This document shows, piece by piece, positions 1 through 40,316 of a stretch of DNA of 64,000 nt. Both the position numbers and the translations under genes were made by a program. This stretch comes from Smithella sp. (GTDB taxonomy: Bacteria > Desulfobacterota > Syntrophia > Syntrophales > Smithellaceae): NCBI GenBank assembly GCA_052139735.1, contig JBKQWB010000038.1, positions 37,766-101,765 on the forward strand. The letters run 5' to 3'. The notes beneath the pieces are model-generated. The model was not told the origin of the DNA and made no database searches. It saw only the letters and a program-made list of their open reading frames with translations. The stretch's first letter is position 1; every line of letters begins with the position of its first letter.

Positions 1-372
1 ATTGACAACGATCACGATGGGTATTTTACGCTTTTGAGCTTTGGCCAAAACCGTATCTTCGTATTTTGTCCAGATATCCGGTTCAACGACAAGAATGATA
101 ATGTCGGCGCGGTCGAAAATTTTAGCCGTTTTCTTGAGTCTTGCGCCGGAAAGTTCTGAAACATCATCAAGGCCTGCCGTGTCCAGAAATAGAACAGGCC
201 CGATCGGCAGTAACTCCATGGCCTTTTCCACAACATCGGTTGTTGTTCCGGCCACAGGGGAGGTAATGGCAATATCCTGGCCGAGCATTAAATTAAGCAG
301 ACTGGATTTGCCAACGTTGGTGCGTCCCATTAACGCGATGTGCAGCCGGTTTCCTTTAGGCGTATTATCCAT
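1..372 (-). CDS. hydF: [FeFe]-hydrogenase maturation GTPase HydF, N-terminal 124 aa (continues past the left edge)
   Basis: Hand translation of the reverse strand from the ATG at 372 gives MDNTPKGNRLHIALMGRTNVGKSSLLNLMLGQDIAITSPVAGTTTDVVEKAMELLPIGPVLFLDTAGLDDVSELSGARLKKTAKIFDRADIIILVVEPD...IPIVIVVN. The frame stays open to base 1. GTPase motifs G1 GRTNVGKSS, G2 GTTTD and G3 DTAG are present. It is absent from the ORF track because the ORF is open at the edge. Its ATG overlaps the stop of the upstream lyase gene. Confidence 0.8.
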   Translation of the reverse strand, partial: MDNTPKGNRLHIALMGRTNVGKSSLLNLMLGQDIAITSPVAGTTTDVVEKAMELLPIGPVLFLDTAGLDDVSELSGARLKKTAKIFDRADIIILVVEPDIWTKYEDTVLAKAQKRKIPIVIVVN

Positions 373-1747
373 TATTTTTGTAACCCAGTGCTGTTAATTG
401 ATAAGGGGATAAATATTTATCCACGATTTCTTTACCCAGTTTCTGTTCTAAAAAGAGCCGCATGTTTTTATCTGAGCACGTAGAAAATTCGGCGATCAGT
501 TGCGTTGCTCTTTCATAACCGATCGCGGGCAGAAGCGCTGTTATGATCATGGGGCTGTGGTCAAAATATTGCCCGCATTTTTTTTGATCGGCGGCGATGC
601 CTTTTACATATTTTACCAAAAGGTTGTCAATGTTAATCAGTAAATCCAGTGATTCCAAAAGCGCCTGCGCCAACAGCGGCAGAAATTCATTAATCTGAAG
701 CGTTCCACGGGCTGCGGTATCGGTGATGACACCGTCGTTGGCAATAACTTTCATGCCGACTTGAATGGCTGCTTCCGCTAAAACAGGATTTACTTTGCCG
801 GGCATGATGGATGAGCCTGCTTGAAGTTGCGGCAGACGAATTTCTCCCAGAAGATTCATCAGGCGCAGATCGCCCGCAATTTTTATCAGATTAACGGCGT
901 GGGCTTTGAGGATGCCGGAAACTTCGACATAAGTATCGGCGTTTGCCGTTTCTCCCATGATATTTTCTCCACGGGAAAGACCTAAACCCGTTACATCCCT
1001 CAATTTTTCAATAACGGAAAAAATATAGTTGCGCGGCGCGGTAAGGCCGGTGCCGACGGCTGTGCCGCCCAGATTAACCACGCGTAGACGTTCCTCGCAT
1101 TTGAATGTCCGCCAGCGGTCGCGTGAAAAAGCTTCGGCAAACGCCGAAAATTCCGCGCCCAATGTAATGGGAACCGCTTCCTGCCACTCTGTTCGTCCTA
1201 ATTTAACTATTTCGCCGAAGGCCTTTTCTTTTTCCTGAAACGCGCCTTGCAGATGGGCGATGCCTTGCGCGAGTTCACGCAAGGCAAGAGTTCCGGCAAT
1301 TTTAATAGCTGTGGGGAAAACATCATTGGTGGACTGATGCAGATTTACGTCTTCCAGTGGATGAACAATCGTGTAATCGCCTTTGTTGCCGCCTTGCAGT
1401 TCAATGGCGCGGTTGGCGATCACTTCATTGAGATTCATGTTGGTTGATGTTCCCGCGCCGCCTTGAAAAGCATCAACCGGAAATTGATCGGCAAGTTTGC
1501 CCGCAATAATTTCTTCGCAGGCGGCAGTTATGGCTTTTGCTTGATCCGTCGAAAGATAGCCGTTTTCGGCATTAGCCAGACAAGATGCTTTTTTGACCAT
1601 CGCCAGTCCCCGAATCAATCGGCTGTTGACTTTTATGCCGCTGATCTGGAAATTATGGATGGCTCTTTGTGTGTGAATACCCCAGTAGGCATCGCGCGGG
1701 ACTTCCATCTTGCCTAAGAAATCTTTTTCTATTCTTTGATCGGTCAT
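365..1747 (-). CDS. aspA: Aspartate ammonia-lyase family protein (class II fumarase/aspartase superfamily)
   Basis: 460 aa. It has the superfamily signature GSSIMPGKVNP and the AspA-like FPVDAFQGGAGTSTNMNLNEVIAN rather than the fumarase QTGSGTQ. The N-terminus RIEKDFLGKMEVPRDAYWGIHTQRAIHNF resembles AspA. Confidence 0.85.
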   Translation of the reverse strand: MTDQRIEKDFLGKMEVPRDAYWGIHTQRAIHNFQISGIKVNSRLIRGLAMVKKASCLANAENGYLSTDQAKAITAACEEIIAGKLADQFPVDAFQGGAGTSTNMNLNEVIANRAIELQGGNKGDYTIVHPLEDVNLHQSTNDVFPTAIKIAGTLALRELAQGIAHLQGAFQEKEKAFGEIVKLGRTEWQEAVPITLGAEFSAFAEAFSRDRWRTFKCEERLRVVNLGGTAVGTGLTAPRNYIFSVIEKLRDVTGLGLSRGENIMGETANADTYVEVSGILKAHAVNLIKIAGDLRLMNLLGEIRLPQLQAGSSIMPGKVNPVLAEAAIQVGMKVIANDGVITDTAARGTLQINEFLPLLAQALLESLDLLINIDNLLVKYVKGIAADQKKCGQYFDHSPMIITALLPAIGYERATQLIAEFSTCSDKNMRLFLEQKLGKEIVDKYLSPYQLTALGYKNNG

Positions 1748-1774: not shown

Positions 1775-1811
1775 ACAAAAAAGAGGTTTGTCCGTAATGG
1801 ACAAACCTCTT
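1775..1811 (-). terminator. Rho-independent terminator after hndD
   Basis: A 12 bp perfect stem, agaggtttgtcc / ggacaaacctct, closes a short loop (about 5 nt) at 1782-1810. On the minus strand it is followed by a T6 run (complement of 1776-1781). Confidence 0.65.
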
Positions 1812-1843
1812 TATACATGATTTTCAGTTAACAGCAAAGCTTC

Positions 1844-3604
1844 TTATTCATCTTTTCCGTGAGGCAAATCCGTGCCTCTTTTCGTGTATTTGGTGTGCAG
1901 AAGCTTGTGCGACTTGTGTCCCAAAGGTTCCTTCAGGAAGTTGGCATACAGTTTCTTAACCGATTCATTTTCATGGGATTGACGGTTCTTCTGAACTTTT
2001 CCGTCATCTTTATAAAGAGCGGAGGAACGAAGTACTCTGATTTCGTTGTTAGTGGGGATGGGCTCGCCGCCGCCGGCGATGCAGCCGCCCGGACAGCACA
2101 TTACTTCAATGAAGGCGTAACCGCCTTTACCTTCGCGAATCAGATCCATCAGTTTGCGGGCATTTCCCAGACCATGAGCAACGGCAATCTTGACATCTCC
2201 AAGAGCGCCAACCTTGACAGTGGCTTCTTTGACGCCTTCCAGACCGCGAACAGGTGTGATATCCAGACTCGGCAGGTTTTCGCCGGTGACAACTGCGTAA
2301 ACCGTGCGCAGAGCGGCTTCCATAACGCCGCCGGTCGCGCCGAAAATGGTGGCTGCGCCGCTGTATTCACCCATCGGGGCGTCATAATCTTCATCCTGCA
2401 GATTGACAAAGTCAAGGCCGCCTTCATGAATCATACGGCCTAATTCTCTCGTTGTGAGAACATAATCAACATCTTGATAGCCGCTGCTGTTCATTTCGGG
2501 GCGCTGGGCTTCAAACTTTTTAGCGGTGCAGGGCATGATGGAAACCGAAACGATATCTTTCGGATCGACGCCCGCTGTTTCCGCGTAATAGGTTTTGGCC
2601 AGCGCGCCGAACATTTGCTGCGGCGATTTGCAGGTGGAAAGATGACCGAGCATATCGGGATAGAAATGTTCGCAGAACTTGATCCATCCGGGGCTGCACG
2701 AAGTAATCATCGGCAGTGTTCCCCCTTCTTTAACTCTTTTGAGTAATTCGTTGCCTTCTTCAATGATGGTGAGGTCGGCAGTAAAATTGGTGTCGAAAAC
2801 TTTATCAAAACCTAGACGGCGCAGCGCAGCGATCATCTTGCCTGTGACAAGGCTTCCCGGAGGCATGCCGAATTCTTCACCAAGAGCCGCGCGGATAGCC
2901 GGAGCTTCCTGCACGATGACATGTTTGGTCGGATCCTGCAGAGCTTTCCATACCAAATCAACGTCATCCTTTTCATATAAAGCGCCTACCGGGCAAACCA
3001 TGATGCACTGGCCGCAGGCGATGCAGTTGGATTCAATCAAAGGCAAATCAAAAGCAGGAACGACTTTTACTTTGCTGCCGCGATTAGCCGGTGTCAAAAC
3101 GCTGACAGTCTGAACTTCATCGCAGACGGTTACGCAGCGATGACATTCAATACATTTGCGGCTGTCCCGTACGATAGAAGGACTGGAATGGTCGATCATG
3201 CCTTCTTTCGGGAATTGTGTATAATCAAAACGAACTTCTTTAATGCCAACAAATTCGGCGACTTTCTGCAATTCGCAGCTGCCGTTTCTTACGCAGTAAT
3301 TGCACTCCTGCGGATGATTGGCCAACAGAAGTTCCACCACCATTTTTCTGGCTTTGCGTACTTTCTCCGTATTGGTGTGGACGACCATTCCCTCGGTTAC
3401 GGGAAAAACGCAGGCCGCGATCAGACTGCGCTGACCTACAACTTCCGTCATACACACACGGCAGGCGCCGGGAGTGTGATTTCTTTCCGTCCATGCACAA
3501 AGTGTGGGAATTACAATACCGGCACTGCGAGCGGCCTCCAGAACTGTGGAGCCGGCCTCTGCCGTCACTTTACGATTATCGATAGTCAAATTAACGGTTG
3601 ACAT
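1844..3604 (-). CDS. hndD: [FeFe]-hydrogenase catalytic subunit (HndD/HydA type, M3 architecture plus C-terminal small-subunit-like tail)
   Basis: 586 aa. The N-terminus has a 2Fe-2S site (CAW...GACRVC), a His-ligated cluster region (HPQECNYCVRNGSC) and two ferredoxin motifs (CIECHRCVTVC, CIACGQCIMVCP). H-cluster motifs are L2 MPCTAKKFE and L3 EVMCCPGGCIAGGGEP. L1 reads TSCSPGW, which is non-canonical (see findings). Confidence 0.92.
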   Translation of the reverse strand: MSTVNLTIDNRKVTAEAGSTVLEAARSAGIVIPTLCAWTERNHTPGACRVCMTEVVGQRSLIAACVFPVTEGMVVHTNTEKVRKARKMVVELLLANHPQECNYCVRNGSCELQKVAEFVGIKEVRFDYTQFPKEGMIDHSSPSIVRDSRKCIECHRCVTVCDEVQTVSVLTPANRGSKVKVVPAFDLPLIESNCIACGQCIMVCPVGALYEKDDVDLVWKALQDPTKHVIVQEAPAIRAALGEEFGMPPGSLVTGKMIAALRRLGFDKVFDTNFTADLTIIEEGNELLKRVKEGGTLPMITSCSPGWIKFCEHFYPDMLGHLSTCKSPQQMFGALAKTYYAETAGVDPKDIVSVSIMPCTAKKFEAQRPEMNSSGYQDVDYVLTTRELGRMIHEGGLDFVNLQDEDYDAPMGEYSGAATIFGATGGVMEAALRTVYAVVTGENLPSLDITPVRGLEGVKEATVKVGALGDVKIAVAHGLGNARKLMDLIREGKGGYAFIEVMCCPGGCIAGGGEPIPTNNEIRVLRSSALYKDDGKVQKNRQSHENESVKKLYANFLKEPLGHKSHKLLHTKYTKRGTDLPHGKDE

Positions 3605-3637: not shown

Positions 3638-6600
3638 TTAAATAGCCGCGTCGCAACGCAAACAACGACAGGCTTCTTTAATAGCATCTTCAGGTTTGAA
3701 GCCAAGTTCCACTTCTGCAAAGCTCATCTTGCGGGTGCCATGATGCATTTCCGGCATTGCCATCTGAGGTATTTCCTCCGTGTCTTCATCAATGACCAGA
3801 GGCACATCAATTTTCTCTTTCGCCGGGTTCTCGTAAGCAGGTTCGCCATTGGCTATGCGGATAGCTGCATCGATATCGTCGGCAGCCTGATGTCCGTAGC
3901 CGATAGCCGCGATGACAGTGTCAGGTCCTGTGACAGCATCGCCGCCCGCGAAATAACGGGAATTGGCTGTACGGGTTTTATATCCCTTACCGACATTGAA
4001 GCAATCCCACTTGTTGATTTCCACGCCGTTCTTTTTATCGATGAAGCTCATATCGGGAACCTGGCCGATGGCGGCAATGACCGCATCAACATTTAAAGTA
4101 AATTCTGAACCTTCTATGACAACAGGTTTCTTGCGTCCGCTGTTGTCAAAGTCGCCCAGTTTCATGCGATTGCAGGTAATGGAAGATACTTTTCCCTTTG
4201 CGCCGTCAATTTTCAACGGGGCAACCAGATAATCAATCTTGATTCCCTCGTCTTCAGCCGCTTTAATTTCCTCTTCGGCTGCCGGCATATCTTGTCTCAA
4301 ACGGCGATACAGAATGGTGACATCTGAACCGAGTCTTAATGCTACGCGAGCAGCGTCAATAGCCGAATTGCCACCGCCGATGACAGCCACTTTCTTGCCC
4401 AGGGTCTTTTCGCCTTTGAGCCATTTGTCTTCATTGTTGTTGAAGTCGCGCAGGAATTCAACGCCGCCGAAAACATTCTTCATATCTTCACCGGGCACGC
4501 CCATTTTCTGGCTCTTGTGCGCGCCTGTTGCCAAATAGATAAAGTCGAAATCTTTTTCCAGTTTGGCAAATGTAATATCCTTGCCCACGCGGGTGTTGAG
4601 GCGAATTTCCACGCCGAGAGCGCGGATATCATCAATTTCACTATCCAGAATGTTGCGAGGCAGACGATATGAGGGAATGCCCCAATAAAGCATTCCACCG
4701 GCTTTATTGAGTTCTTCAAAAACGGTTACTTTGTAACCGCGTAATGCCAGATCACGCGCGGCGGTAAGACCGGCAGGGCCTCCGCCCACAACAGCTATCT
4801 TTTCTTTGCGTGTGACAGGCACAACATCGATCTTCGGACGAGGCGCGTTATCTGTAATGAAACGCTTCAGGAACTTAATGGCAATGGGTTCATCCATGTT
4901 GCCGCGGCGGCATTTGCTCTGGCATTTGTGATCGCAGACTCTTCCGCAAACGGAGGGGAAGGGGTTGCTTTGCAGCAGTATTTTGTATGCGTCGTCAAAT
5001 CGTTCGGCCCGAATAAGCGCTATATAGGAAGGAATATCCATTTCGATCGGGCAGGTATGCTGACACGGTGATTTGAACATGGCCGAGCATACTGCTGCTA
5101 CGCATTTATGCTCGCGGATGTGCTGTTCATACTCTTTACGGAAATAACGGATGGTGCTTAAAATAGGATTTGGCGCTGTTTGTCCCAATCCGCAAAGGGC
5201 CGCATTTTTGATAATTTCGGCCATTTCTTCCAGAAGTTCAATATCGCCTTCCTTGCCTTTGCCCTGGGTGATATTGGTCAATATATCCAGCATGCGTTTC
5301 GTGCCCTCGCGGCAGGGTGTACATTTGCCGCAGGATTCATCCTGGCAGAAATCCATGAAGAATCTGGCCATATCGACGGCGCATTTGTCTTCATTCATTA
5401 CGATTAAACCGCCGGAGCCCATAATGGCGCCGAGTTCAACTACTTTTTCATAATCAACTGGAGCGTTTAAATGCTGAATGGGAATACAGCCGCCGGAGGG
5501 CCCGCCTAACTGTGCTGCTTTGAATTTCTTGCCTTTGGGAATACCGCCGCCGATATCATAAACGATGGTGCCCAGTTTTGTTCCCATGGGAACTTCCACA
5601 AGACCGACGTTGTTAACGTCACCGGTAAGCGCGAATACTTTTGTGCCTTTGCTCTTTTCCGTGCCGATGGATGCGTACCATTTTCCTCCGCGCAGAAGAA
5701 TCTGACCGATGTTAGCCAATGTTTCCACGTTATTCAGAATACTCGGTTTCTGCCACAGACCGGCAACAGCGGGGAAGGGCGGTCTTGGCCGGGGCATGCC
5801 TCTTTTCCCTTCAATGGAGGTCATCAGGGCCGTTTCTTCACCGCAGACAAAAGCGCCTGCGCCCTGGTAAATTTCCAGATCGAAATCAAAGCCCGTGCCC
5901 AGAATATCCTTACCCAGCAAACCGGCATTATGCGCTTGGTCTATGGCTACGTTTAAACGATGAATAGCCAACGGATACTCAGCGCGGCAATAAATGTAAC
6001 CTTGCTTGGAACCTATGGCTTTGGCGGCGATAACCATTCCTTCAAGAACGGCGTGTGGATCAGCTTCCAGAACGCTTCTGTCCATAAAGGCACCGGGATC
6101 TCCTTCATCAGCATTGCATAAAACGTATTTAATATCACTTTTGGACTGAGCGGCAAATTTCCATTTCAGGCCTGTAGGGAAGCCCGCTCCGCCGCGCCCT
6201 CTTAATCCTGAATCGAGGATTTCCTGAACGATTTGTTCCGGTTTCATTTCAGTCAGGGCTTTAGCCATGCCGGCATAGCCGTCACGCGCGATATATTCAT
6301 CAATTTTTTCGGGATCGATCAGACCACGATTCTTCAAAACTCTCAACTCCTGATGAGCGAAGAAGGGGATGTCCTGCATGGTCGGAATAATTTCATCTGT
6401 TGAGGGCTCATGATATAAGAGACGCTCTAAAGTTCTTCCCTTGATTAAATGTTCTTCAACCAGTTCCGGTATATCTTGCGGCTTCAAGCTGACGTAAATT
6501 ATACCTTCCGGATAAACGACCATGATCGGTCCCAGAGCGCAAAATCCGTTACATCCTGTTTCCACAACCTTTATTTCTTCAGTCAATCCTCTTTTGTCAA

Positions 6601-6694
6601 GCTCTTCCAATAAAGCTTTTTTTACTGCAGGTTGGCCGGAAGCCTGACAGCCGGTGCCTCCACAGATTAATAAATGCGAACGAAAAACTTTCAT
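3638..6694 (-). CDS. hndC: NuoF-like flavoprotein subunit of the hydrogenase (HndC/HydB) fused to a GltD/NfnB-like NADPH-dependent FAD oxidoreductase module
   Basis: 1018 aa. Domains in order:
- N-terminal thioredoxin-like 2Fe-2S domain (LLICGGTGCQASG...CNGFCALGP).
- NuoF FMN/NADH region (GLRGRGGAGFPTGLKWKF, NADEGDPGAFMDR).
- N3 cluster motif ESCGKCTPCREG.
- From about aa 530, a GltD-like part: CGRVCDHKCQSKC, the FAD fold VVGGGPAGLTAARDL, and the NADPH fold VIGGGNSAIDAARVALRLGSDVTILYRR.
- C-terminus ...EACRCLRCDAAI. Confidence 0.88.
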   Translation of the reverse strand: MKVFRSHLLICGGTGCQASGQPAVKKALLEELDKRGLTEEIKVVETGCNGFCALGPIMVVYPEGIIYVSLKPQDIPELVEEHLIKGRTLERLLYHEPSTDEIIPTMQDIPFFAHQELRVLKNRGLIDPEKIDEYIARDGYAGMAKALTEMKPEQIVQEILDSGLRGRGGAGFPTGLKWKFAAQSKSDIKYVLCNADEGDPGAFMDRSVLEADPHAVLEGMVIAAKAIGSKQGYIYCRAEYPLAIHRLNVAIDQAHNAGLLGKDILGTGFDFDLEIYQGAGAFVCGEETALMTSIEGKRGMPRPRPPFPAVAGLWQKPSILNNVETLANIGQILLRGGKWYASIGTEKSKGTKVFALTGDVNNVGLVEVPMGTKLGTIVYDIGGGIPKGKKFKAAQLGGPSGGCIPIQHLNAPVDYEKVVELGAIMGSGGLIVMNEDKCAVDMARFFMDFCQDESCGKCTPCREGTKRMLDILTNITQGKGKEGDIELLEEMAEIIKNAALCGLGQTAPNPILSTIRYFRKEYEQHIREHKCVAAVCSAMFKSPCQHTCPIEMDIPSYIALIRAERFDDAYKILLQSNPFPSVCGRVCDHKCQSKCRRGNMDEPIAIKFLKRFITDNAPRPKIDVVPVTRKEKIAVVGGGPAGLTAARDLALRGYKVTVFEELNKAGGMLYWGIPSYRLPRNILDSEIDDIRALGVEIRLNTRVGKDITFAKLEKDFDFIYLATGAHKSQKMGVPGEDMKNVFGGVEFLRDFNNNEDKWLKGEKTLGKKVAVIGGGNSAIDAARVALRLGSDVTILYRRLRQDMPAAEEEIKAAEDEGIKIDYLVAPLKIDGAKGKVSSITCNRMKLGDFDNSGRKKPVVIEGSEFTLNVDAVIAAIGQVPDMSFIDKKNGVEINKWDCFNVGKGYKTRTANSRYFAGGDAVTGPDTVIAAIGYGHQAADDIDAAIRIANGEPAYENPAKEKIDVPLVIDEDTEEIPQMAMPEMHHGTRKMSFAEVELGFKPEDAIKEACRCLRCDAAI

Positions 6695-6760: not shown

Positions 6761-7144
6761 TTATCTGGTTACTTCAGATCCTCTGGCCAGAACAAAAGGA
6801 GTCTGAATTTCTCCCTCCATGATGTGTCTTTTGAAAACCTGTCTCATTTTGTTGGAATTCATATATTCATATTTTATCGGTTCCTGATTCAGGACTTCAA
6901 CAGTAACAAGAGGTTCGCGGCTGCATAATCCCATGCAACCGGAAGTGGTTATGACAACATCATTTGCGCCGGCAGCTTCAATTTCCTGAAGCAATGTATC
7001 CATAACTTCTTTGGCTCCCGAAGCGATACCGCAGGTTCCCATGTGGACGGTAACTTTGACGCGACGCTCGCCATCCCGCAGGGACATTTCCTTGTGCACT
7101 TTATCCTTTATTTTTTTTAAATCATCTATTGTTAATTTCGCCAT
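6761..7144 (-). CDS. hndB: Small thioredoxin-like [2Fe-2S] ferredoxin subunit (HndB-like)
   Basis: 127 aa with HMGTCGIASGA...TSGCMGLCSREP, a four-Cys pattern typical of the 2Fe-2S thioredoxin-like fold. It lies between the NuoE-like and NuoF-like genes, as in hndABCD. Confidence 0.75.
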   Translation of the reverse strand: MAKLTIDDLKKIKDKVHKEMSLRDGERRVKVTVHMGTCGIASGAKEVMDTLLQEIEAAGANDVVITTSGCMGLCSREPLVTVEVLNQEPIKYEYMNSNKMRQVFKRHIMEGEIQTPFVLARGSEVTR

Positions 7145-7175: not shown

Positions 7176-7673
7176 TTATGTATATTGAGCTAATATCTCT
7201 TTTACCTTGCCCGGCTTGACACGGCCGTGCACGTCTTCATTCACAACAACTACCGGCCCCAAACCGCAGGCGCCTAAACAACGAACGCTTTCCAGAGTAA
7301 ACATTCTGTCGGGAGTGGTCTCGCCTTCCTTAATGCCGAATTCCTTCTCCATGGCTTCAGTGAGTGCTTTTCCGCCGCGCACATAGCAGGCAGTTCCCAG
7401 ACAAACGCGAACAGTATGCTTGCCTCGCGGTGTCATGGTAAAAAACGAGTAAAACGTGACAACACCGTAAACCCGGCTTAAAGGCAAATTCAAGTCTTTG
7501 GCAATCTTTTTCTGCGCTGATAGGGGCAGGTATTCCAGACACACCTGCGCTTCTTCCAGTACGGGAATTAAACTTCCCGGTTTGCCTTTGTGTTTGCTGA
7601 TAATCTTGTTTAGTTTATCAACTTGTGCTGATGTAAATTCTTTTAAAAGTTCAGTATCTTCTGCCTTCATCAA
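7176..7673 (-). CDS. hndA: NuoE-like [2Fe-2S] subunit of the hydrogenase (HndA/HydC)
   Basis: 165 aa with VRVCLGTACYVRGG...VRCLGACGLGPVVVVN, the NuoE/24 kDa-type cluster motif. Confidence 0.87.
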   Translation of the reverse strand: MMKAEDTELLKEFTSAQVDKLNKIISKHKGKPGSLIPVLEEAQVCLEYLPLSAQKKIAKDLNLPLSRVYGVVTFYSFFTMTPRGKHTVRVCLGTACYVRGGKALTEAMEKEFGIKEGETTPDRMFTLESVRCLGACGLGPVVVVNEDVHGRVKPGKVKEILAQYT

Positions 7674-7701: not shown

Positions 7702-8250
7702 TTATGCCCGGGGTTTAATTTCGCTTAAACCTTCGTCAATGACGCCACGAATATATTTTAATATTTCAAAATGATTTATCGGTAAATCATCGATTTCTTT
7801 GCGGATTTCACGCGTGTCCACTGAGAACCGTTGGTCATTATGCCTATGTTTGTAAATAAAGTCAACAAAAGAATTTCCGGCAATAAGATTGATAATAGTT
7901 GCTGAAATATCACCCATAGGCTGCCTGTCCAGATGGTCGAGTTGAAAAGTTGCCTTAAGCCTTGTTCCCTTACCTTTTTCTGATTTCAAATCAAGATTGC
8001 CGCCGGCCATTTGAGCGGCATTGGTCAGAAGAGGAATTCCCAATCCGAATCGTCTCACTTTTTTTGTTGTGTAAAAAGGGTCAAAGGCTCTTTTGATTTC
8101 CTCTTTGGTCATTCCGCAGCCGTCGTCATTTATTTCTATGGAGAGCAAATTATTAGCCGAATCTTCATTTATATTTATTTCGACTGTTTTAGCTCCTGCA
8201 CGAACAGAGTTTTCAGCAATATCCAGAATATGTTCGGCAAGCTCCAGCAT
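7702..8250 (-). CDS. Stand-alone GHKL/histidine-kinase-like ATPase domain protein
   Basis: 182 aa. N-box EHILDIAENSVRAGA, G1 NDDGCGM, G2 RRFGLGIPLL. No DHp or sensor domain is visible. Confidence 0.7.
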   Translation of the reverse strand: MLELAEHILDIAENSVRAGAKTVEININEDSANNLLSIEINDDGCGMTKEEIKRAFDPFYTTKKVRRFGLGIPLLTNAAQMAGGNLDLKSEKGKGTRLKATFQLDHLDRQPMGDISATIINLIAGNSFVDFIYKHRHNDQRFSVDTREIRKEIDDLPINHFEILKYIRGVIDEGLSEIKPRA

Positions 8251-8252
8251 TT

Positions 8253-8990
8253 CTACTCCAATACACGACGACCGTTTTGCCCGGTGAAAGCCATTTTTAA
8301 TTCCGCCAGAGTTGGTTTTTCAAGCATAATCTTTGTCAGTGCCGTTCCAATGTCTTTTAAGTAATGGGCATCGGAGGAAGTTATAAATGAATAATTATTC
8401 AACTCCCTGTATTTAATTCGTGCCTGTTGAAGACCTGTTAAGGACGATATTTCCAACGCGTCAAAATGAATGCTTTCGTCAATAAAGCCGAGTTGGCTCA
8501 ATACACTGAAACTTTCTCTGTCTATATGAGAGGCAACTGCTAATCCGTTTTGCTCATGTACGTGGTTCAATAAATCATTTAATGGAATATCAGTGGCTCC
8601 GATTAATAATTTATCGTTTATTCCCTCGACCTCGCCATTTTCATTTACAATGGCCTGAACGCCGAAACGGTCTTCATCATTTTTTCCCGGCAGATGCTGA
8701 TAAACAATTTCCTGCAGCCTGGCTAAATCCGGCAAAGAATCGAATAGAGCTAAAAAATGCACTTCTTCACTTGTTGTTATTTCCATTCCGGGAAATATCT
8801 TTAAATTTTTTCCCCGGGCGGCATTGATGACGTAAGAAACATTTTCAGAAGAGTTGTGATCGCAAATGGCAAGAATATCGAGACCGGCGGCGATGGCTCT
8901 TTCTACCAGAGCTTTGGGATGCATATCCAATTCGGCGCAAGGTGAGAGACAAGTGTGAATGTGAAAATCACAATTAAAAACTTTAAGCAT
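8253..8990 (-). CDS. PHP-domain (polymerase/histidinol phosphatase-like) metal-dependent phosphoesterase
   Basis: 245 aa. It has the N-terminal CDFHIHTCLSPCA motif, then ILAICDHNS and SSDAHYL, which are typical PHP metal ligands. Confidence 0.75.
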   Translation of the reverse strand: MLKVFNCDFHIHTCLSPCAELDMHPKALVERAIAAGLDILAICDHNSSENVSYVINAARGKNLKIFPGMEITTSEEVHFLALFDSLPDLARLQEIVYQHLPGKNDEDRFGVQAIVNENGEVEGINDKLLIGATDIPLNDLLNHVHEQNGLAVASHIDRESFSVLSQLGFIDESIHFDALEISSLTGLQQARIKYRELNNYSFITSSDAHYLKDIGTALTKIMLEKPTLAELKMAFTGQNGRRVLE

Positions 8991-9053: not shown

Positions 9054-9398
9054 TTATTTTTCCGTTCTCAACAAGTTATAAATTCTACCTGTTAATTCGA
9101 ATGCGGACAAATTTGAAATCAGTATGGGGACATTCTCCTGAATGGCCTTTTCCAGAGTGTCTTTAGCCGGTTCGCAAGAATTAACCAGAATAACAGCCGC
9201 GTGCTCTTTCAAGGTGGCTATGGCAACGATATTTTGGTGCACCTGTCGTGTTATCCAGATATCTCCTTCGTGAGAATTTGCCATTACATCGCTTAAGAGA
9301 TCTCCCGTATAACCTCCTTTAACATTATTATTCTTAATTCTGTCTAATGCAGATACTACTTTTAAATTTAATTCTTTTGCTATGGTTGCGATGTCCAT
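9054..9398 (-). CDS. DRTGG-domain protein (short, divergent copy)
   Basis: 114 aa. Core YTGDLLSDVMAN...AAVILVNSCEP...ENVPILIS aligns with the two other DRTGG-like ORFs in this locus. Confidence 0.6.
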   Translation of the reverse strand: MDIATIAKELNLKVVSALDRIKNNNVKGGYTGDLLSDVMANSHEGDIWITRQVHQNIVAIATLKEHAAVILVNSCEPAKDTLEKAIQENVPILISNLSAFELTGRIYNLLRTEK

Positions 9399-9408
9399 TA
9401 TATATCCT

Positions 9409-9876
9409 TTATATATCCTTTGTTAATTGAGTAGCGTTAATGATCATTCTTAAAGAAGTTCCTTTGTTCACTTCCGATGAGATATCGAATTTGTCAGAGT
9501 AGAAATTGATATTGTGAAGTCCCATGCCGGCGCCGAACCCCATTTCTCTTATTTGCTGACTGGCAGTAGAATAACCTTGTTCCATTGCCTGTTCAATATT
9601 GGGTATTCCGGGCCCTTCATCAGCTGCTTCAATCTCGACATTTTCCGGGGTGACTGTAAGATTGATAAATCCTTTTCTGGCGTAAGAAACGATATTGATT
9701 TCGGCTTCATAAGACACAATGGCGGACTTTCGAACAACATCGCTCGGCAGTCCTTTTTCTTTTAGGATAGCTTTTATGCGCATAGAAACTGTCCCAGCGA
9801 CATTAAAATTACCGCCCTCAATATTAAAGCTATACTTATTAAAAGTGTTTTCAGGTTTGTTCACTACCGGTATCAA
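9409..9876 (-). CDS. Anti-sigma-factor-type Ser/Thr kinase-like ATPase (SpoIIAB/RsbW-like HATPase)
   Basis: 155 aa with YEAEINIVSYA (N-box-like), DEGPGIP (G1) and GFGAGMGLHNI (G2). It overlaps the upstream DRTGG gene by 26 nt. Confidence 0.65.
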   Translation of the reverse strand: MIPVVNKPENTFNKYSFNIEGGNFNVAGTVSMRIKAILKEKGLPSDVVRKSAIVSYEAEINIVSYARKGFINLTVTPENVEIEAADEGPGIPNIEQAMEQGYSTASQQIREMGFGAGMGLHNINFYSDKFDISSEVNKGTSLRMIINATQLTKDI

Positions 9877-10225
9877 CTTTTTCCAGACAGCCGACTATGC
9901 CTTTTGCGTAAAGACGGCCCGCCGTTTCGAATAAAATGTATTTTGTCGTTAAAATGGGAATTTGAAGACTCTTAGCCATAGATATGGTTTCTGCAGGCGG
10001 TTTTTTACCGCGAACTAAAATTATCGCGGCCATATCGAGAACATTGGCGATTCTCACAACCTGCGTATTAGTCAAGCCGGTCAACAAAAGACAGCCCGCC
10101 TTCGCAAAGGAAAGGACATCGCTCATTAAGTCTGCTCCAAAAGCGGTTGTGACTTCAATATCTAGTTTTTCATCACCAACAATAACGTCGGCATCTAATA
10201 TTTCTTTAACTTCTCTTAGTTTCAA
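9851..10225 (-). CDS. DRTGG-domain protein, paralog A
   Basis: 124 aa, TTG start behind GAGGAA. Motifs FGADLMSDVL, LLLTGLTN and AAIILVRGKKP...IPILTT. About three quarters of residues match the ORF at 10485-10862. Confidence 0.6.
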   Translation of the reverse strand: MKLREVKEILDADVIVGDEKLDIEVTTAFGADLMSDVLSFAKAGCLLLTGLTNTQVVRIANVLDMAAIILVRGKKPPAETISMAKSLQIPILTTKYILFETAGRLYAKGIVGCLEKVDTGSEQT

Positions 10226-10484: not shown

Positions 10485-10862
10485 TTATTTGTTGTGAAAA
10501 CTGTCACTGTCGACTTTTTTCAGGCAACCAACAATACCTTTACTATAAAGGATACCGGCTGTTTCAAATAAAATATATCGCGTAGTTAAAATCGGAATTT
10601 GAAGTTCTTTAGCCATGTCGATAGCTTCAGTAGAGGGTTCTTTTCCTCTAACGATGATAATAGCGGCAATATGCTTGGCCGCAGCCGTTTTAATGACCTG
10701 AGCATTTGTTAAGCCGGTCAATAAAAGACTTCCCGCTTTGGCAAAAGCCATTACATCGCTCATCAAATCAGCTCCAAAAGCCGTAGAAACCTCAATATCT
10801 AATTGCCCCTTGCCGACGATTAAATCAGCATCCAATACTTCTTTAACTTCTCTTAGCTTCAA
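10485..10862 (-). CDS. DRTGG-domain protein, paralog B
   Basis: 125 aa, TTG start behind GGAG. It is colinear with paralog A over its full length (MKLREVKE[IV]LDAD...ILFETAG.LY.KGIVGCL.KVD). Confidence 0.6.
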   Translation of the reverse strand: MKLREVKEVLDADLIVGKGQLDIEVSTAFGADLMSDVMAFAKAGSLLLTGLTNAQVIKTAAAKHIAAIIIVRGKEPSTEAIDMAKELQIPILTTRYILFETAGILYSKGIVGCLKKVDSDSFHNK

Positions 10863-11515: not shown

Positions 11516-11602
11516 GCGAGAGTGGCGGAATTGGCAGACGCACTGGACTTAGGATCCAGCCCGCTATGCGGAATAGGGGTTCAAGTCCCCTCTCTCGCAC
11601 CA
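11516..11602 (+). tRNA. tRNA-Leu (anticodon TAG)
   Basis: 87 nt class II tRNA. Acceptor gcgagag/ctctcgc, anticodon stem ctgga/tccag, loop ctTAGga, long variable arm cccgctatgcggaat, T arm agggg-ttcaagt-cccct, encoded CCA. Confidence 0.9.
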
Positions 11603-11652
11603 GTCTTAAAGAAGAGTTTTGTAAATATTTCAATGAAAAAGGAGATATTATC

Positions 11653-12975
11653 GTGAGTCAGGTTCAGATCAAGATGGAAGAATTGAGTCCAGTTAAGAAA
11701 AAATTATCATTTGAAATACCCTGGAGTGAGGTTAAAAATGAACTGGATGCTGTATATCATGAGGTTAATAAGAAAGCTAAAATTAAAGGTTTTCGTCCGG
11801 GCAAAATTCCACGCAAGATTTTAGAAACTTATTATAAGGATCATGCCCAGGAAGAAGCGACAACCAATATTGTGAACAAATATTACTGGCAAGCGTTGGA
11901 AGACAAGGGAATTGTTGCTGTTTCGCGACCCGAAATAAGTCAGGAAGGAATAAAAGAAAATACAGATTTTTCTTTTTCTGCTTCGTTCGAAATGGAACCG
12001 GAGTTTGAACCTAAAGGTTATAAAGGAATCGAATTAGAAAAAGAAGAACTTAAAGTAACCGATAATGATGTTAAAAAAAGAATTAACGAAATAAGAGAAA
12101 TGTTTGCGACGATGGAGGAGGTCAAAGATGATCGACCCGTTGTCAATGCTGATTTTGTTGTGATTGATTTTGCAGGGAGTTTAAACGGAGAATTATACAA
12201 AGAATTAAAAACGGAAGACTATTTACTGGAAATCGGATCACAGAGATTTGTTCCGGGTTTTGAGGAACAATTGATTGGTATGAAAAACGGGGAAATAAAG
12301 GAAATTAAAGTAACTTTCCCTGCTGACTATCACGAAAATAAATTTGCCGGCAAAGAGATAATTTTCAATGTAACATTGAAAGGCATAAAGGAGAAGAAAT
12401 TACCTGAAACGGATGATAACTTTATCAAAAATTTCGACAGGTACAATTCTTTGGAAGATTTAAAAAACGATGTGCGTAAAACTTTGGAAGAAAAATTTCA
12501 CCGCCAGGCGGAAATTAATCTGCAAAACAGAATTACAGAAATATTGATAAAAGAAAATGATTTTGAAGTTCCCTCTTCGCTTGTTGAAAGGCAGATTTAT
12601 TATATGATGACTGATACTCAAAAAAGAATGGTTTCTGCCGGTATGGATGAAAAAAATGCTCTGGAATTAAGCTTTAAGATGCATGATAAATTCAAAGATG
12701 ACGCGGCTAAAATCGTCAAATCTTTTTTACTTTTAAAAAAAATAGCCCAAAAAGAGTCATTTGTCGTTGAAGAAAACGATGTAGATAAATATATTCAGGA
12801 ATTAGCTGTTCAGAATGGCCAGGATTACGAATTATTAAAGAAAATGTACGATAGTGAAGAACGTAAAGACAGTCTTAAAATGGAGTTGATTCAAAAAAAG
12901 ACATTTGACTTTATAGAGCACAATGCCAATATTAAGACCGTAGAAAACAATGGTATGAATGCGGAGGTTAAATAG
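11653..12975 (+). CDS. tig: Trigger factor
   Basis: I chose the GTG start at 11653 behind AAAGGAGA. The ORF-track start at 11566 lies inside tRNA-Leu. The product has an N-terminal ribosome-binding region ([13 protein letters not shown]) and an FKBP PPIase region ([18 protein letters not shown]). Confidence 0.9.
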
Positions 12976-31059: not shown

Positions 31060-32292
31060 ATGAAAGTTGATACAATGCGGCATGTTGATTATTATGTCGG
31101 TGTTCCTCTTTGTTTTCTTGGTTCCTTGTGTCAAAAAGCTATGAAATTGTTGGTCAGGCGCGATAAAAAAACGCCGAAGAACGTTTTGTTTATCGAATTA
31201 TCGGAAATGGGCAGCGCCATTTTGGTTGATCCGGCGATGAGAAAATTGCAGAAAGAAGGGGGGGCTAACCTTCATTTTGCAATTTTTAAGAAAAATAAAC
31301 CCAGCCTCGATTTATTGGGCACAGTTCCTCAGGAAAATATTTATACAATCCGCGAAGACAGCTTTCTTTCATTGGCGCTGGACGGTATAAAATTCTTTTA
31401 CTGGACAAGAAAAAGAAAAATCGATGCAGTAATTGATCTGGAACTTTTTTCACGGGTCACGGCTTTGCTTACCGGTTTCAGCGGCGCTCCGTTAAAGGTC
31501 GGCTTTCATGCCTATTACAATGAAGGGCTTTACCGGGGAGATTTTTTGTCGCACAAAGTCGCCTATAATCCTCATATTCATATCGCGAAAAATTTTATTG
31601 CCCTGGTAAATGCCTTATTGTCATCAAAAGAAGAAATTCCCTATTCGAAGACAATGATTTCCGACGATGAAATCCGTCTAGCCAAAGTTAAATTCTCCGT
31701 GGACGAGAAAAAAACAGTCATGGACATTGTTCGCGAATGTTTTGAAAAATATAATGCTGAAAAACACAAAATAATATTAATCAATCCCAACGCCAGCGAA
31801 CTTCTTATCCAGCGCCGCTGGCCGCAGGAAAATTATACGCAATTAATAAAAATGATTCTGGATAATTGCTCAAAAGCAATTGTCTTAATTACGGGCGATC
31901 CACGCGAAAGGGAAGAAGCCGGGCACCTCAAAGAGCAGGTGCAAGATGAAAGATGTGTTAATTTTGCGGGGAAAGTAAAATTTGCCCAGCTTCCATTGCT
32001 CTACAGTATTTCCGAATTCATGGTGACCAATGATTCAGGTCCTCCGCATTTTGCCGCAGTAACCGATATGCCGACATTTGTAATTTTTGGTCCGGAAACA
32101 CCGGCACTATATGGATCACTGGGAAAAACCACGCCTATTTATGCCGGATTGGCTTGCTCACCCTGTGTAAGCGCGGCAAACCACCGTAAAACGGCATGCA
32201 GGGATAATGTCTGCCTGAAAATTATAAAACCTTCGCAGGTCTTTGAAATTATCCGGCCTGACTTAGAGAAAATTAATGCCGAAAGCGAATAA
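31060..32292 (+). CDS. Glycosyltransferase family 9 (heptosyltransferase-like)
   Basis: 410 aa. The C-terminal region FMVTNDSGPPHFAAVTDMPTFVIFGPETP is typical of ADP-heptose:LPS heptosyltransferase-type GT-B enzymes. Confidence 0.7.
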   Translation: MKVDTMRHVDYYVGVPLCFLGSLCQKAMKLLVRRDKKTPKNVLFIELSEMGSAILVDPAMRKLQKEGGANLHFAIFKKNKPSLDLLGTVPQENIYTIREDSFLSLALDGIKFFYWTRKRKIDAVIDLELFSRVTALLTGFSGAPLKVGFHAYYNEGLYRGDFLSHKVAYNPHIHIAKNFIALVNALLSSKEEIPYSKTMISDDEIRLAKVKFSVDEKKTVMDIVRECFEKYNAEKHKIILINPNASELLIQRRWPQENYTQLIKMILDNCSKAIVLITGDPREREEAGHLKEQVQDERCVNFAGKVKFAQLPLLYSISEFMVTNDSGPPHFAAVTDMPTFVIFGPETPALYGSLGKTTPIYAGLACSPCVSAANHRKTACRDNVCLKIIKPSQVFEIIRPDLEKINAESE

Positions 32293-33721
32293 ACACATAT
32301 TTTTCTTGATTGGTTTCTTCACTTTAATCCGTCTTGTTGCAGCGCCATTATTCGGATTGGGTGTTGATGAAGCCCATTATGTTTTATACGCGAAATATCT
32401 CGACTGGAGTTACGTTGATCATCCGCCGCTTGTGGGCTGGGTGCACGCGCCGTTATTTTATATTTTCGGAACAAATGAGTTTCTTGCCCGTCTGCCGGCG
32501 ATTTTAATCTTTGCCGCCGCTTCTTACTGTGCCTATTTATTTATATTAAGAATCACTCAATCGATACGGTTGTCATTGCTGTCCGTTCTGGCGTTGAATT
32601 GTTCTTTTATGCTCAATGCTTTGGGGCTGATGCTTCTGCCGGATTCTTTTCTGTTGCTGTTTGTTTTTCTGCTGATATTTGTTTCCGAAAAGATACTTCG
32701 TGAAAAGAAACCGCTGGATTTTATTTTACTGGGAGTTTTATTTGGTTTAATGGGATTGGCCAAATATACTTCGATCTTACTTGTGCCGCCGCTGGTAATA
32801 TTTTTTCTCATGAAAAAGAGATACGATATACTTTTCTCTCCTTACATGTTTCTGGCGGCGTTCATCGCCTTCATTTTCATTACCCCGGTAATCTATTGGA
32901 ACATGACGCATGACTTTATCAGTTTCCGCTATCAGGGCGGGCATGTTTTCGGAACTTTTGCCTCAAGTTTCAAAAATTTTGCCGAATCGCTGGCCGCGCA
33001 GTTCGGCGCTTACAACCCCTTATTATTTATAATTGCCTTTTACGGATTTTTTAAAACACTGCGCTCGTCTGATGTTTATCTGCGGCTGGCCATTTTATTT
33101 GGTGGAACGATCATGGTTTTTTTCCTGTTCACATCGTTTTATGAAAGAACTCTTCCGCACTGGCCCAGTATTTTTTATCTGCTCTTTATTCCGGTGGGAA
33201 CCTATACTCTTATACAGGCTAAAGAAAAATGGAAAAGAAACTTTCTTTATTTTTCCATCGGATTTGGCCTTGTTTTAACTTTATTTATGTATGTGGAACT
33301 TGCCGGTAAATATTTTATTTTTCCCGATTACAAATCGCCATTTCGTGATATTTATGGATTTCCCTCAATTCTCAAACAGGCCGATGAAATTATGAAAAAA
33401 AATATATCATCGGCGCCAAAAGCAATCGCGGTGAGCAATTGGACTATGGGCAGCCGGACGATGTATTATAACCTGCCATATAAAAATGAAGTATTCGTCA
33501 TTGATAACCGACAAGATCAATTTGATGTCTGGCGGAAGAAATCACCCCGGGGCTATGATCTTCTTTTCCTTAATACTCATTTTAATAATCTAGATATTGA
33601 AAAGAATGTTCGCTGCGAACGAACTGATATTGCCGGGAAGACGGATGTGTTGCTCAACGGCGCTAAAGTAGATACCGTCGACTTTGTGTGGTGTCATAAT
33701 TATCAGGGAGTGAAACCGTGA
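32276..33721 (+). CDS. Glycosyltransferase family 39 / ArnT-like polytopic membrane glycosyltransferase
   Basis: 481 aa. The N-terminal loop motif GVDEAHYVLYAKYLDWSYVDHPPLVGW is followed by multiple TM segments. Confidence 0.7.
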   Translation: MPKANKHIFFLIGFFTLIRLVAAPLFGLGVDEAHYVLYAKYLDWSYVDHPPLVGWVHAPLFYIFGTNEFLARLPAILIFAAASYCAYLFILRITQSIRLSLLSVLALNCSFMLNALGLMLLPDSFLLLFVFLLIFVSEKILREKKPLDFILLGVLFGLMGLAKYTSILLVPPLVIFFLMKKRYDILFSPYMFLAAFIAFIFITPVIYWNMTHDFISFRYQGGHVFGTFASSFKNFAESLAAQFGAYNPLLFIIAFYGFFKTLRSSDVYLRLAILFGGTIMVFFLFTSFYERTLPHWPSIFYLLFIPVGTYTLIQAKEKWKRNFLYFSIGFGLVLTLFMYVELAGKYFIFPDYKSPFRDIYGFPSILKQADEIMKKNISSAPKAIAVSNWTMGSRTMYYNLPYKNEVFVIDNRQDQFDVWRKKSPRGYDLLFLNTHFNNLDIEKNVRCERTDIAGKTDVLLNGAKVDTVDFVWCHNYQGVKP

Positions 33722-34500: not shown

Positions 34501-34511
34501 AGAGTATTATT

Positions 34512-36182: not shown

Positions 36183-36194
36183 AAAGAAGAATAA

Positions 36195-38280: not shown

Positions 38281-38335
38281 ATTAATTTAAGAGATTCAGG
38301 CTATATCCCTGCGGTTTAAAGGAGAAGTTATAAAT

Positions 38336-40287: not shown

Positions 40288-40316
40288 TCTCAAGCCTTTT
40301 TCGGGAATAAATCCTT

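Follow-up and report, generated by a model that had tools for sequence, protein, structure and literature searches.

The fusion ORF and its operon

We analysed a stretch of 64,000 nucleotides (nt) of Smithella sp. DNA (GenBank assembly GCA_052139735.1, contig JBKQWB010000038.1, positions 37,766 to 101,765), hereafter the window, and in particular an open reading frame (ORF) of 1018 amino acids (aa) that starts with ATG and occupies positions 3638..6694 of the minus strand. This ORF consists of a complete HydB/HndC (BfuB) flavoprotein followed by a complete GltD/NfnL-like module for flavin adenine dinucleotide (FAD) and NADPH. It is the third of four genes on one strand, in the order HndA/NuoE-like, HndB-like, fusion and HydA, with gaps of 31-66 nt. 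The fusion had been noticed in a reading of the sequence alone, which described a single 1018-aa ORF at 3638-6694 (leaving its strand unstated) in a hydrogenase context, with a join around nt 5100, a GltD-type unit in place of the usual two-ferredoxin tail and a C-terminal motif permuted from the GltD N-terminus. These claims were all borne out: the operon is of the HndA-HndB-HndC-HndD [FeFe]-hydrogenase type, the junction (aa 525-545) lies at nt ~5060-5122, and every motif quoted in that reading was found in the translation. The features of the operon are as follows.

7176..7673, minus strand: HndA/HydC/NuoE-like subunit (BfuC), 165 aa (2Fe-2S_thioredx 3.7e-52; [2Fe-2S] Cys 91, 96, 132, 136)
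6761..7144, minus strand: HndB-like small thioredoxin-like protein, 127 aa (2Fe-2S_thioredx 8e-4, under the gathering score)
3638..6694, minus strand: fusion ORF, 1018 aa (HydB/HndC (BfuB) core, then GltD/NfnL-like FAD/NADPH module)
6395..6694, minus strand: thioredoxin-like [2Fe-2S] domain of the fusion (BfuB B5 site), aa 1-100 (Cys 11, 16, 48, 52; Pfam 2Fe-2S_thioredx 5-81)
5123..6394, minus strand: NuoF-type core segment (Complex1_51K, NADH_4Fe-4S; matches to BfuB chains)
5087..5122, minus strand: Zn-hinge ligands H525, C531 and C536 (with C438), aa 525-536, the final BfuB element ahead of the join
4820..5074, minus strand: Fer4_20 domain, aa 541-625 (C544, C548, C583, C587, C591 and C595, six of the eight cluster Cys, and K610)
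3845..4819, minus strand: FAD fold (GGGPAG at 637) and second dinucleotide fold (GGGNSA at 773, YRR 796-798), aa 626-950 (Pyr_redox_2 632-932; alignments)
3740..3844, minus strand: linker leading the chain back to the Fe-S domain, aa 951-985 (least conserved, 73% mean identity; predicted local distance difference test score (pLDDT) 84-92)
3641..3739, minus strand: permuted tail F992..E1007-A-C-R1010-C1011-L-R-C1014, aa 986-1018 (last two Cys of the GltD Fe-S pair)
1844..3604, minus strand: HydA/HndD, [FeFe]-hydrogenase catalytic subunit with NuoG-like N-terminus, 586 aa (Pfam, NCBIfam)
1780..1812, minus strand: terminator-like hairpin, 14-bp stem and T run, 32 nt past the HydA stop codon, likely the operon end

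The Pfam domain scan of the fusion, proposed in the sequence-only reading, gave the expected domains in order: 2Fe-2S_thioredx 5-81, Complex1_51K 160-329 (5e-48), a weak SLBB, NADH_4Fe-4S 441-525 (3e-37), Fer4_20 530-617 (9e-27) and Pyr_redox_2 632-932 (5e-33). In the translation, the N-half shows C11, C16, C48 and C52 of the thioredoxin-like domain, GRGGAGFPTG at 166, CGKCTPC at 455 and C501; the junction side HIREHKCVAAVC at 525-536, SPCQHTCP at 542-549 (Cys 544, 548) and CGRVCDHKCQSKC at 583-595; and the C-half GGGPAG at 637, GGGNSA at 773, YRR at 796 and RCLRC at 1010. A motif search of the translation found the ferredoxin motif CX2CX2CX3CP nowhere in the ORF, residues 537-1018 being Fer4_20 and Pyr_redox_2. 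Current annotation pipelines label the protein 'NuoF', a name that hides the GltD module.

Residues 1-542 align end to end with solved BfuB chains: A. mobile NiFe-HydB (7t2r_B, 1e-241), A. woodii HydB (7q4v_B, 1e-231), T. kivui 8a6t_B, StnB 8oh5_B, and NfnB 9bov_B and 9n5u_B. The alignment continues through 'EQHIREHKCVAAVC', opposite 'EAHIRDKKCPAGVC'. The NuoF-like fold for flavin mononucleotide (FMN) and NAD(H) with its B1 [4Fe-4S] cluster, which defines a BfuB, is represented by GRGGAGFPTG and the ligands C455, C458, C461 and C501, kept in all of the 121 aligned close relatives over which residue conservation was counted, with identity taken relative to the window's ORF. The N-terminal thioredoxin-like [2Fe-2S]/Zn domain (B5) of BfuB is present too, as is the B2/Zn hinge of one His and three Cys: H525, C438, C531 and C536 align with A. 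woodii and A. mobile HydB, the hinge region lying opposite 'AHIRDKKCPAGVC' of A. woodii HydB. This site is absent from non-bifurcating homologs; in T. sibiricus NfnB it is formed by H524, C437, C529 and C534 and separates the core from the ferredoxin-like C-terminal domain (PMC12018979).

Since C531 and C536 align with hinge ligands, they belong to the BfuB hinge and not to the GltD clusters. As judged from the alignments, the GltD module starts directly after the hinge, at the exact usual start of the B3/B4 domain, and a join at this place implies that the module replaces that two-[4Fe-4S] ferredoxin-like domain, whose two CX2CX2CX3CP motifs complete a BfuB and are missing here. B3/B4 is described as conserved throughout Bfu complexes. 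The BfuBC core of the family is said to be constant, with only the A subunit varying (PMC9304861).

The C-half has the composition of a GltD/NfnL protein, that is Fer4_20, two [4Fe-4S], the FAD GxGxxG and a second GxGxxA fold with an Arg pair (alignments to 4ylf_B, 5jca_L and 6s6s_G), with the F..E..A.RCLxC segment, N-terminal in that family, lying C-terminal at 986-1018. The Arg pair of the GltD/NfnL family binds the 2'-phosphate of NADPH, and the YRR of the fusion is identical to that of the NADPH-using NfnB, NfnI-L and NfnA. Residues 541-1015 are collinear, tail included, with C. saccharolyticus NfnA (9bov_A 101-567, 2e-113) and S. ovata StnC (8oh5_C 101-566), the tail running in register with 9bov_A 532-567 ('rkmsfaevelgfkpedaikeacrclrcd' opposite 'rknfreitstmtekeaiaeasrclecg'). 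Against the free-standing T. maritima NfnB (4ylf_B) and P. furiosus NfnI-L (5jca_L), the HMMER match splits in two out-of-order stretches: the module body aligns from residue ~45-50 onward, and the C-terminal 36 residues align with 8-43 of NfnB and 10-46 of NfnI-L. On these alignments, the RCLRC tail is a true circular permutation, shared with the solved StnC and NfnA and not peculiar to the fusion.

The six Cys at 544, 548, 583, 587, 591 and 595, together with C1011 and C1014, make up the eight required by two [4Fe-4S] clusters. The sequence-only reading had given the tail motif as CRCLRC; R-C1011-L-R-C1014 is indeed conserved, and R1010, C1011, L1012 and C1014 are invariant across 13 fusions down to 34% identity, but the first Cys, C1009, is Ser in 13 of the 121 relatives and is predicted not to be a cluster ligand. 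At the FAD-proximal cluster, StnC, whose FAD is non-bifurcating, has a Lys ligand (K170), and bifurcating NfnB has a Glu (PMC10482914). In the fusion, K610 of 'FLKRF' matches the StnC K170 position, lining up with 'LKRF' of NfnA and with 'LERF' of NfnB and NfnI-L; it is Lys in 121/121 relatives, and the Glu of bifurcating NfnL is missing. Consequently the earlier label 'NfnB-like', taken in the sense of the bifurcating NfnSL, did not hold, K610 being the Stn-type Lys (PMC10482914).

The catalytic partner HydA contains Fe_hyd_lg_C (3.5e-101), Fe_hyd_SSU, Fer2_4, NADH-G_4Fe-4S_3 and two Fer4 domains, matches A. woodii HydA1 (7q4v_A) over the full length (E 1e-194), and scores 903 against the NCBIfam model FeFe_hydrog_A6 NF040763 ('NADH-dependent [FeFe] hydrogenase group A6'; cut-off 765). 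Its H-cluster motifs L1-L3 are present (TSCSPGW, MPCTAKKFE, EVMCCPGGCIAGGG) and it is a bona fide A3/A6-type enzyme. An abnormal H-cluster, suspected from TSCSPGW at L1 against the textbook TSCCPxW, was dropped as a candidate, the identical string occurring in the functional A. woodii HydA1 (7q4v_A); at window positions 2690-2710 (minus strand; HydA residues 301-307) it is a clade feature and no defect. The partners of a Bfu core are therefore both at hand, namely a BfuC with the C1 [2Fe-2S] (HndA) and a BfuA with NuoG-like clusters (the HydA N-terminus). According to the HydDB rule, an adjacent NuoF-domain protein assigns a hydrogenase to A3, and GltD without NuoF to A2 (PMC5037454); this rule would class the fusion-linked hydrogenase as A3. 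The HndB-like protein has three Cys only (38, 70, 74) and no NCBIfam match, and is kept at 74-98% identity beside the fusion in nearly all loci.

Conservation and gene neighbourhoods

The homolog search, which covered 5.8 billion proteins, matched the fusion to >120 protein clusters, 84-99% identical and 1003-1021 aa long (nearly all 1017-1018 aa), named 'NuoF' in metagenome-assembled genomes (MAGs) of Smithella/Smithellaceae. GTDB species genomes were scanned with a junction-spanning query, which gave 80 independent loci with a full-length match (85-99% identical to that query), some on Mb-scale contigs. They are labelled Smithella, Syntrophaceae or deltaproteobacterial, except for 4 MAGs labelled Spirochaetes, Leptospirales, Alphaproteobacteria and Thermodesulfobacteriota. 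Across the junction one reading frame alone is open. Thus the orthologs that the sequence-only reading proposed to look for do exist, and the frameshift or assembly join near nt 5100 that it named as the condition for the ORF being really two genes was checked and is ruled out by the clusters, the independent loci and the single open frame. The fusion is a real, strongly conserved variant of a known enzyme family.

Conservation extends to the functional residues. The Fe-S, Zn, flavin and nucleotide residues, the N-terminal Cys 11, 16, 48 and 52 among them, are each kept in 120-121 of the 121 relatives, and all four Zn-hinge ligands, the YRR and both GxGxxG/A motifs in 121/121; in the 13 fusions down to 34% identity, H525, C438 and C531 are invariant and C536 nearly so. 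Mean identity to the window ORF over the 121 sequences is 93% in the NuoF core, 90% in Fer4_20, 85% in the FAD/NADPH segment, 73% in the linker and 79% in the tail.

An AlphaFold2 model built on a 61-row alignment, of the kind that the sequence-only reading had suggested, was confident (mean pLDDT 93.1, predicted template modelling score 0.90), the tail included (pLDDT 92-96 at residues 981-1010). In a Foldseek comparison with the PDB, the N-half matched BfuB chains (TM-score 0.83-0.97, depending on the target) and the C-half 9bov_A, 8oh5_C, 9n5u_A, 5jca_L and 4ylf_B; among these matches no solved chain spans both halves.

The HndA-HndB-fusion trio is constant over the 80 Smithellaceae loci, and the next gene differs. 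Pfam confirmed one example of each downstream type.

[FeFe] HydA: 42 loci
Formate dehydrogenase alpha, split as at a selenocysteine (Sec) codon: 4 loci
NuoG-like protein with [NiFe] small and large subunits: 2 loci
Only a formate/nitrite transporter nearby: 8 loci
Other: 14 loci
Contig ends: 10 loci

The trio appears to be a shared core that related genomes also use for a formate dehydrogenase or [NiFe]-hydrogenase module. The downstream variants can be seen in Smithellaceae at L021:7728-10299, L025:7734-10434, L069:7734-11521 and L024:9439-12763, where the arrangements are a formate dehydrogenase alpha broken as at Sec, a NuoG-like protein with [NiFe] subunits and a protease, or no catalytic gene, FocA-type and MFS transporters being close by; at L069 the fusion is paired with a [NiFe] enzyme. 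In Ca. Smithella cisternae M82_1 (L027, scaffold 900), the orthologous genes are 900_60:63, followed by the aspartate ammonia-lyase 900_64 as in the window. The paper on that genome, in which NADP is not mentioned, took the enzyme for a confurcating hydrogenase of the NADH+ferredoxin kind on the analogy of S. fumaroxidans, and it notes the lack of Rnf (PMC5606693).

Clustering at 50% identity gave ~10 further full-length NuoF-GltD fusion families. Their contexts are NuoE + fusion + HydA (P0121, 55% identity), NuoE + fusion + a NuoG N-terminal protein, and molybdopterin oxidoreductase + 4Fe-4S protein + fusion, besides several stand-alone genes and two fusions beside a glutamate synthase gene. 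In these distant fusions the NuoF half is often degenerate (e.g. RERTH-EGLPVF for RGRGGAGFPTG) and RCLRC is retained.

Some of these arrangements deserve separate mention. A metagenome contig (L086:5239-15156) encodes two NuoF-GltD fusions of 1051 and 1055 aa, each with a NuoE-like gene ahead of it, followed by a small Fer2_4 protein and a Glu_synthase gene; the locus may encode an NADH-coupled glutamate synthase using the GltD module. The fusions at L083:3199-9393 and L088:3183-9117 (34-37% identity; one cluster, Desulfobaccales) lie behind the molybdopterin oxidoreductase and 4Fe-4S protein, have degenerate NuoF FMN-site motifs and carry an additional Cys-rich C-terminal extension past RCLRC. 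At L089:153-7460, ~650-aa proteins consist of the NuoF four-helix-bundle (NADH_4Fe-4S) domain and the permuted GltD module only, and one of them lies in a complex-I-like operon with NuoG-like, NuoJ and NuoK genes.

Upstream of the hydrogenase operon, the window contains the following genes, a set usual for such operons; the HATPase and PHP genes are syntenic in most Smithellaceae loci.

7702-8250, minus strand: HATPase_c (Pfam)
8253-8990, minus strand: PHP (Pfam)
9054-9398, minus strand: DRTGG (Pfam)
9409-9876, minus strand: HATPase_c_2 (Pfam)
9851-10225, minus strand: DRTGG (Pfam)
10485-10862, minus strand: DRTGG (Pfam)

The DRTGG genes 9851-10225 and 10485-10862 are close paralogs, apparently from a tandem duplication, and the HATPase_c_2 ORF (9409-9876) overlaps the former by 26 nt. 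Directly past the operon lies a Lyase_1 gene of the aspartate ammonia-lyase or class II fumarase type (365-1747, minus strand), a pairing that is syntenic in most HydA-bearing Smithellaceae loci; it corresponds to gene 900_64 of Ca. Smithella cisternae M82_1. The remaining window genes are housekeeping. They include a tig-clpP-clpX-lon run with tRNA-Pro, tRNA-Val and tRNA-Asp close by, in which the listed start of the trigger-factor ORF (11566-12975, plus strand) overlaps tRNA-Leu(TAG) at 11516-11602; the true start is probably ~100 nt downstream, Pfam Trigger_N beginning at residue 34. An Arn-like cluster for lipid A / undecaprenyl-sugar modification (31060-41174, plus strand) contains GT9, two PMT_2 (ArnT-like), PAP2, a DegT aminotransferase, GT2, a formyltransferase, an epimerase/dehydratase and a polysaccharide deacetylase.

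Relation to known enzymes

Among the closest known systems are the electron-bifurcating [FeFe]-hydrogenases HydABC/HndABCD of A. woodii, T. kivui, T. maritima and D. fructosovorans, whose operon logic is the same (NuoE-like, (HndB), NuoF-like, HydA). The fusion N-half is 55-60% identical to HydB 8a6t_B and 7q4v_B, with the FMN/NAD site, B1, the Zn hinge and the N-terminal [2Fe-2S] in common; however, where these enzymes have their B3/B4 ferredoxin exit, the fusion has an FAD/NADPH module of 480 aa, which brings two [4Fe-4S] of its own. The order hndA-hndB-hndC-hndD of D. fructosovorans Hnd, including the small HndB, is that of the window operon (PMC7483475).

The StnABC/NfnABC (Nfn-Bfu) transhydrogenases (S. 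ovata 8oh5, C. saccharolyticus 9bov, T. sibiricus 9n5u) share with the fusion complex a BfuBC-type core and the same permuted GltD module (body, then F..E..A.RCL.C) with the same Lys. In these enzymes, however, the module forms an insertion within the A subunit (StnC 102-565), which is without H-cluster, and feeds a mid-potential path, while their BfuB keeps B3/B4 and reduces ferredoxin; in the fusion, the module occupies the B3/B4 position at the B-subunit C-terminus, and the accompanying A subunit is a hydrogenase with H-cluster. A Stn/Nfn complex in disguise, considered as a candidate, is ruled out on this ground, the A subunit being a true hydrogenase and the module lying in the B subunit. 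As the fusion lacks the B3/B4 domain of BfuB and does not share the module's location in StnABC/NfnABC, it is not to be filed simply as either.

The large subunit of NfnSL/NfnAB (T. maritima 4ylf, P. furiosus 5jca) has the same fold, FAD, YRR NADPH site and two [4Fe-4S] (E ~1e-103), but carries its RCLxC at the N-terminus and a Glu at the proximal cluster, is itself a bifurcation site and has NfnS as partner, whereas the fusion has the permuted tail, the Lys and no NfnS-like partner. The cytoplasmic ferredoxin-independent H2 enzymes of syntrophic fatty-acid degraders likewise offer a route to H2 without ferredoxin (PMC7311640, PMC5626996). Their beta subunits are without the N-terminal [2Fe-2S], the hinge and the C-terminal clusters and have one nucleotide site; by contrast, the bifurcation-type core is still present in the fusion, which has a second nucleotide site besides.

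In the literature searched we found no paper describing a bacterial HydB-GltD fusion, and the sole prior notice found of a GltD-type domain on HydB is that of the archaeal group F hybrid hydrogenase. The sequence-only reading knew of no characterised enzyme with this fusion; none is indeed characterised, but a similar HydB had been noticed in the archaeal hybrid [FeFe]/[NiFe] hydrogenases by Greening et al. (Cell 2024), where a NuoF-like HydB carries a GltD-type 'GltA domain' modelled on 7MFM chain I (PMC11216029). That complex, like the Smithella system, is a hydrogenase with NuoE- and NuoG-like subunits; it differs in that its catalytic subunit is a HydA-HyhS fusion, it is described from AlphaFold models only, and the domain is read as a ferredoxin site, with NADPH unmentioned (PMC11216029). 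Our comparison of the archaeal HydB with the Smithella fusion was made on the published description.

Proposed electron transfer and its possible meaning for Smithella

In solved Bfu enzymes, low-potential electrons go from FMN/B1 over the swinging BfuC [2Fe-2S] domain to B3/B4, and B3/B4 with the BfuC C-terminal domain forms the ferredoxin site, that is the low-potential exit (PMC12018979, PMC11829005). Because the GltD module replaces this exit domain, the fusion enzyme is probably not a ferredoxin-bifurcating hydrogenase. We give about an even chance to the explanation that we favour, in which the Smithella fusion hydrogenase would be a ferredoxin-independent Bfu-type core coupling H2 or formate to NAD(H) and NADP(H). 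HndA, HndB, the fusion and HydA would encode a cytoplasmic Bfu-type [FeFe]-hydrogenase. Its bifurcation core is kept whole (FMN/NAD(H), B1, Zn hinge, N-terminal [2Fe-2S] domain and partner [2Fe-2S] subunit), and a Stn-type NADPH:FAD:2x[4Fe-4S] module stands in for the ferredoxin-docking two-cluster domain. H2/H+ would be linked via the HydA clusters to B1-FMN, with the NAD(H) reaction taking place at FMN; the mobile HndA [2Fe-2S] domain would carry electrons one at a time from the FMN site to the GltD cluster pair at the usual B3/B4 place, or back, and this pair would be in electron exchange with FAD and NADP(H). Overall, the enzyme would catalyse 2 H2 + NAD+ + NADP+ <-> NADH + NADPH + 2 H+, NADPH replacing ferredoxin as the lower-potential partner; in a syntroph it would run toward H2, with NADPH oxidation pulling NADH oxidation and no reduced ferredoxin required.

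With the in vivo potentials of PMC9304861 (NADH ~-280 mV, NADPH ~-380 mV, ferredoxin ~-500 mV), the computed equilibrium H2 pressure is ~3 Pa when NADH acts by itself; pairing it with NADPH raises this value to ~145 Pa, and pairing it with ferredoxin to ~15 kPa. A rise in H2 tolerance from 3 to 145 Pa would be a useful gain for a syntroph without an evident route of ferredoxin reduction.

The sequence-only reading had inferred two nicotinamide sites and a built-in Nfn-like or NADP-coupled branch. The part of this inference that concerns sequence and fold held, with an intact NuoF-type FMN/NAD(H) site and an intact GltD-type FAD and YRR site; of the two kinds of branch, the Nfn option has become less likely, because the module shares its permutation and Lys ligand with the non-bifurcating GltD module of StnC/NfnA.

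Some observations weigh against the coupling that we favour. NADPH use by the module is predicted from just the YRR pair and homology. About 22 of the 70 loci with enough downstream DNA have the trio without an adjacent catalytic gene, and such orphan trios are just as consistent with a stand-alone role, e.g. as a transhydrogenase. As to a source of NADPH, an oxidative pentose-phosphate branch is not reported in the M82_1 paper, nor is a transhydrogenase mentioned there (PMC5606693), and Greening et al. placed a 'likely ferredoxin' at the equivalent GltA domain of the archaeal HydB (PMC11216029).

The same domain anatomy would also serve an uncoupled use of both nucleotides, in which NADH at FMN and NADPH at FAD each exchange electrons with the H-cluster independently, with no bifurcation or confurcation; the enzyme would then be a dual-specificity NAD(P)H hydrogenase with NADPH:NAD+ transhydrogenase side activity. 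The Stn-type Lys, which marks a non-bifurcating FAD (PMC10482914), is in line with this, and the orphan trios and the stand-alone NuoF-GltD fusions of other lineages would suit a simple NAD(H)/NADP(H) link. However, every feature that sets a bifurcating BfuB apart from non-bifurcating HydB/NuoF is kept: the hinge His and Cys, the N-terminal [2Fe-2S] and the BfuC partner would be needless for a plain diaphorase (PMC9304861, PMC7311640), and their retention disfavours one. Moreover, the position held by the module is reached in solved Bfu enzymes only via the gated BfuC domain. We regard uncoupled use as unlikely.

Dependence on ferredoxin might instead be retained, ferredoxin docking at the distal GltD cluster, as on NfnL in NfnSL, or between HndA and the module, with FAD/NADPH as a fourth substrate site or as an NfnSL-like second bifurcation site; to this explanation belongs the built-in Nfn of the sequence-only reading. 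The placement made for the archaeal HydB and the confurcating annotation of the M82 ortholog (PMC5606693) speak for it, as does the fact that the two [4Fe-4S] of the homologous NfnSL subunit lead to ferredoxin (PMC10482914, PMC8097209). Against it, the canonical ferredoxin-binding domain is absent from the fusion, and the published annotations left the NADPH site out of consideration. Furthermore, Lys in place of Glu together with the Stn-type permutation is the form that lost bifurcation and became a plain NADPH entry (PMC10482914), and in particular the conserved Lys and the permutation disfavour a second bifurcation site. This explanation seems to us quite improbable.

There is, in our view, little chance that the GltD module is degenerate or a structural relay, its second site binding NADH or nothing and the enzyme being an NADH-only hydrogenase. 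The decay of distant NuoF-GltD fusions, which affects the NuoF half, indicates that modules of the family can degenerate; nevertheless, 120-121 of the 121 Smithella-type sequences retain each residue of the FAD, dinucleotide and Fe-S sites and of the tail, the FAD/NADPH segment has 85% mean identity, and the YRR is that of the NADPH-using enzymes. An artefact merging two genes by assembly join or frameshift has practically no chance at all, in view of the uniform length of >120 clusters, the 80 independent MAG loci, the single open frame at the junction and the same domain order in fusion representatives down to 34% identity.

A wider claim goes beyond the coupling by the window's enzyme and, although possible, is in our judgement doubtful: Smithellaceae would use a novel flavin-based confurcation/bifurcation with NADP(H) replacing ferredoxin, in which one shared HndA-HndB-(HydB-GltD) core serves [FeFe], [NiFe] and formate dehydrogenase modules. 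If true, it would explain how these syntrophs, which are without Rnf, get rid of NADH as H2 or formate with no need of reduced ferredoxin, and would break the rule of invariant BfuB and BfuC cofactors in the Bfu family.

Smithella plays a key part in degrading propionate and alkanes in digesters, oil reservoirs and peat. Both its hydrogenase and its formate dehydrogenase are at present drawn as NADH+ferredoxin enzymes, and its genomes are without an obvious route of ferredoxin reduction (PMC5606693). Recombinant [FeFe]-hydrogenases of related syntrophs have already been produced in E. coli (PMC7311640), and this precedent makes the NADPH prediction directly testable. With a B subunit rebuilt at the place where ferredoxin gets reduced, the fusion breaks the 'constant BfuBC core' rule of the Bfu family (PMC9304861). 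If NADPH replaces ferredoxin there, the enzyme would carry out a bifurcation of a new kind, with NAD+ and NADP+ as the joint partners of H2 or formate, and the metabolic models of Smithella would change.

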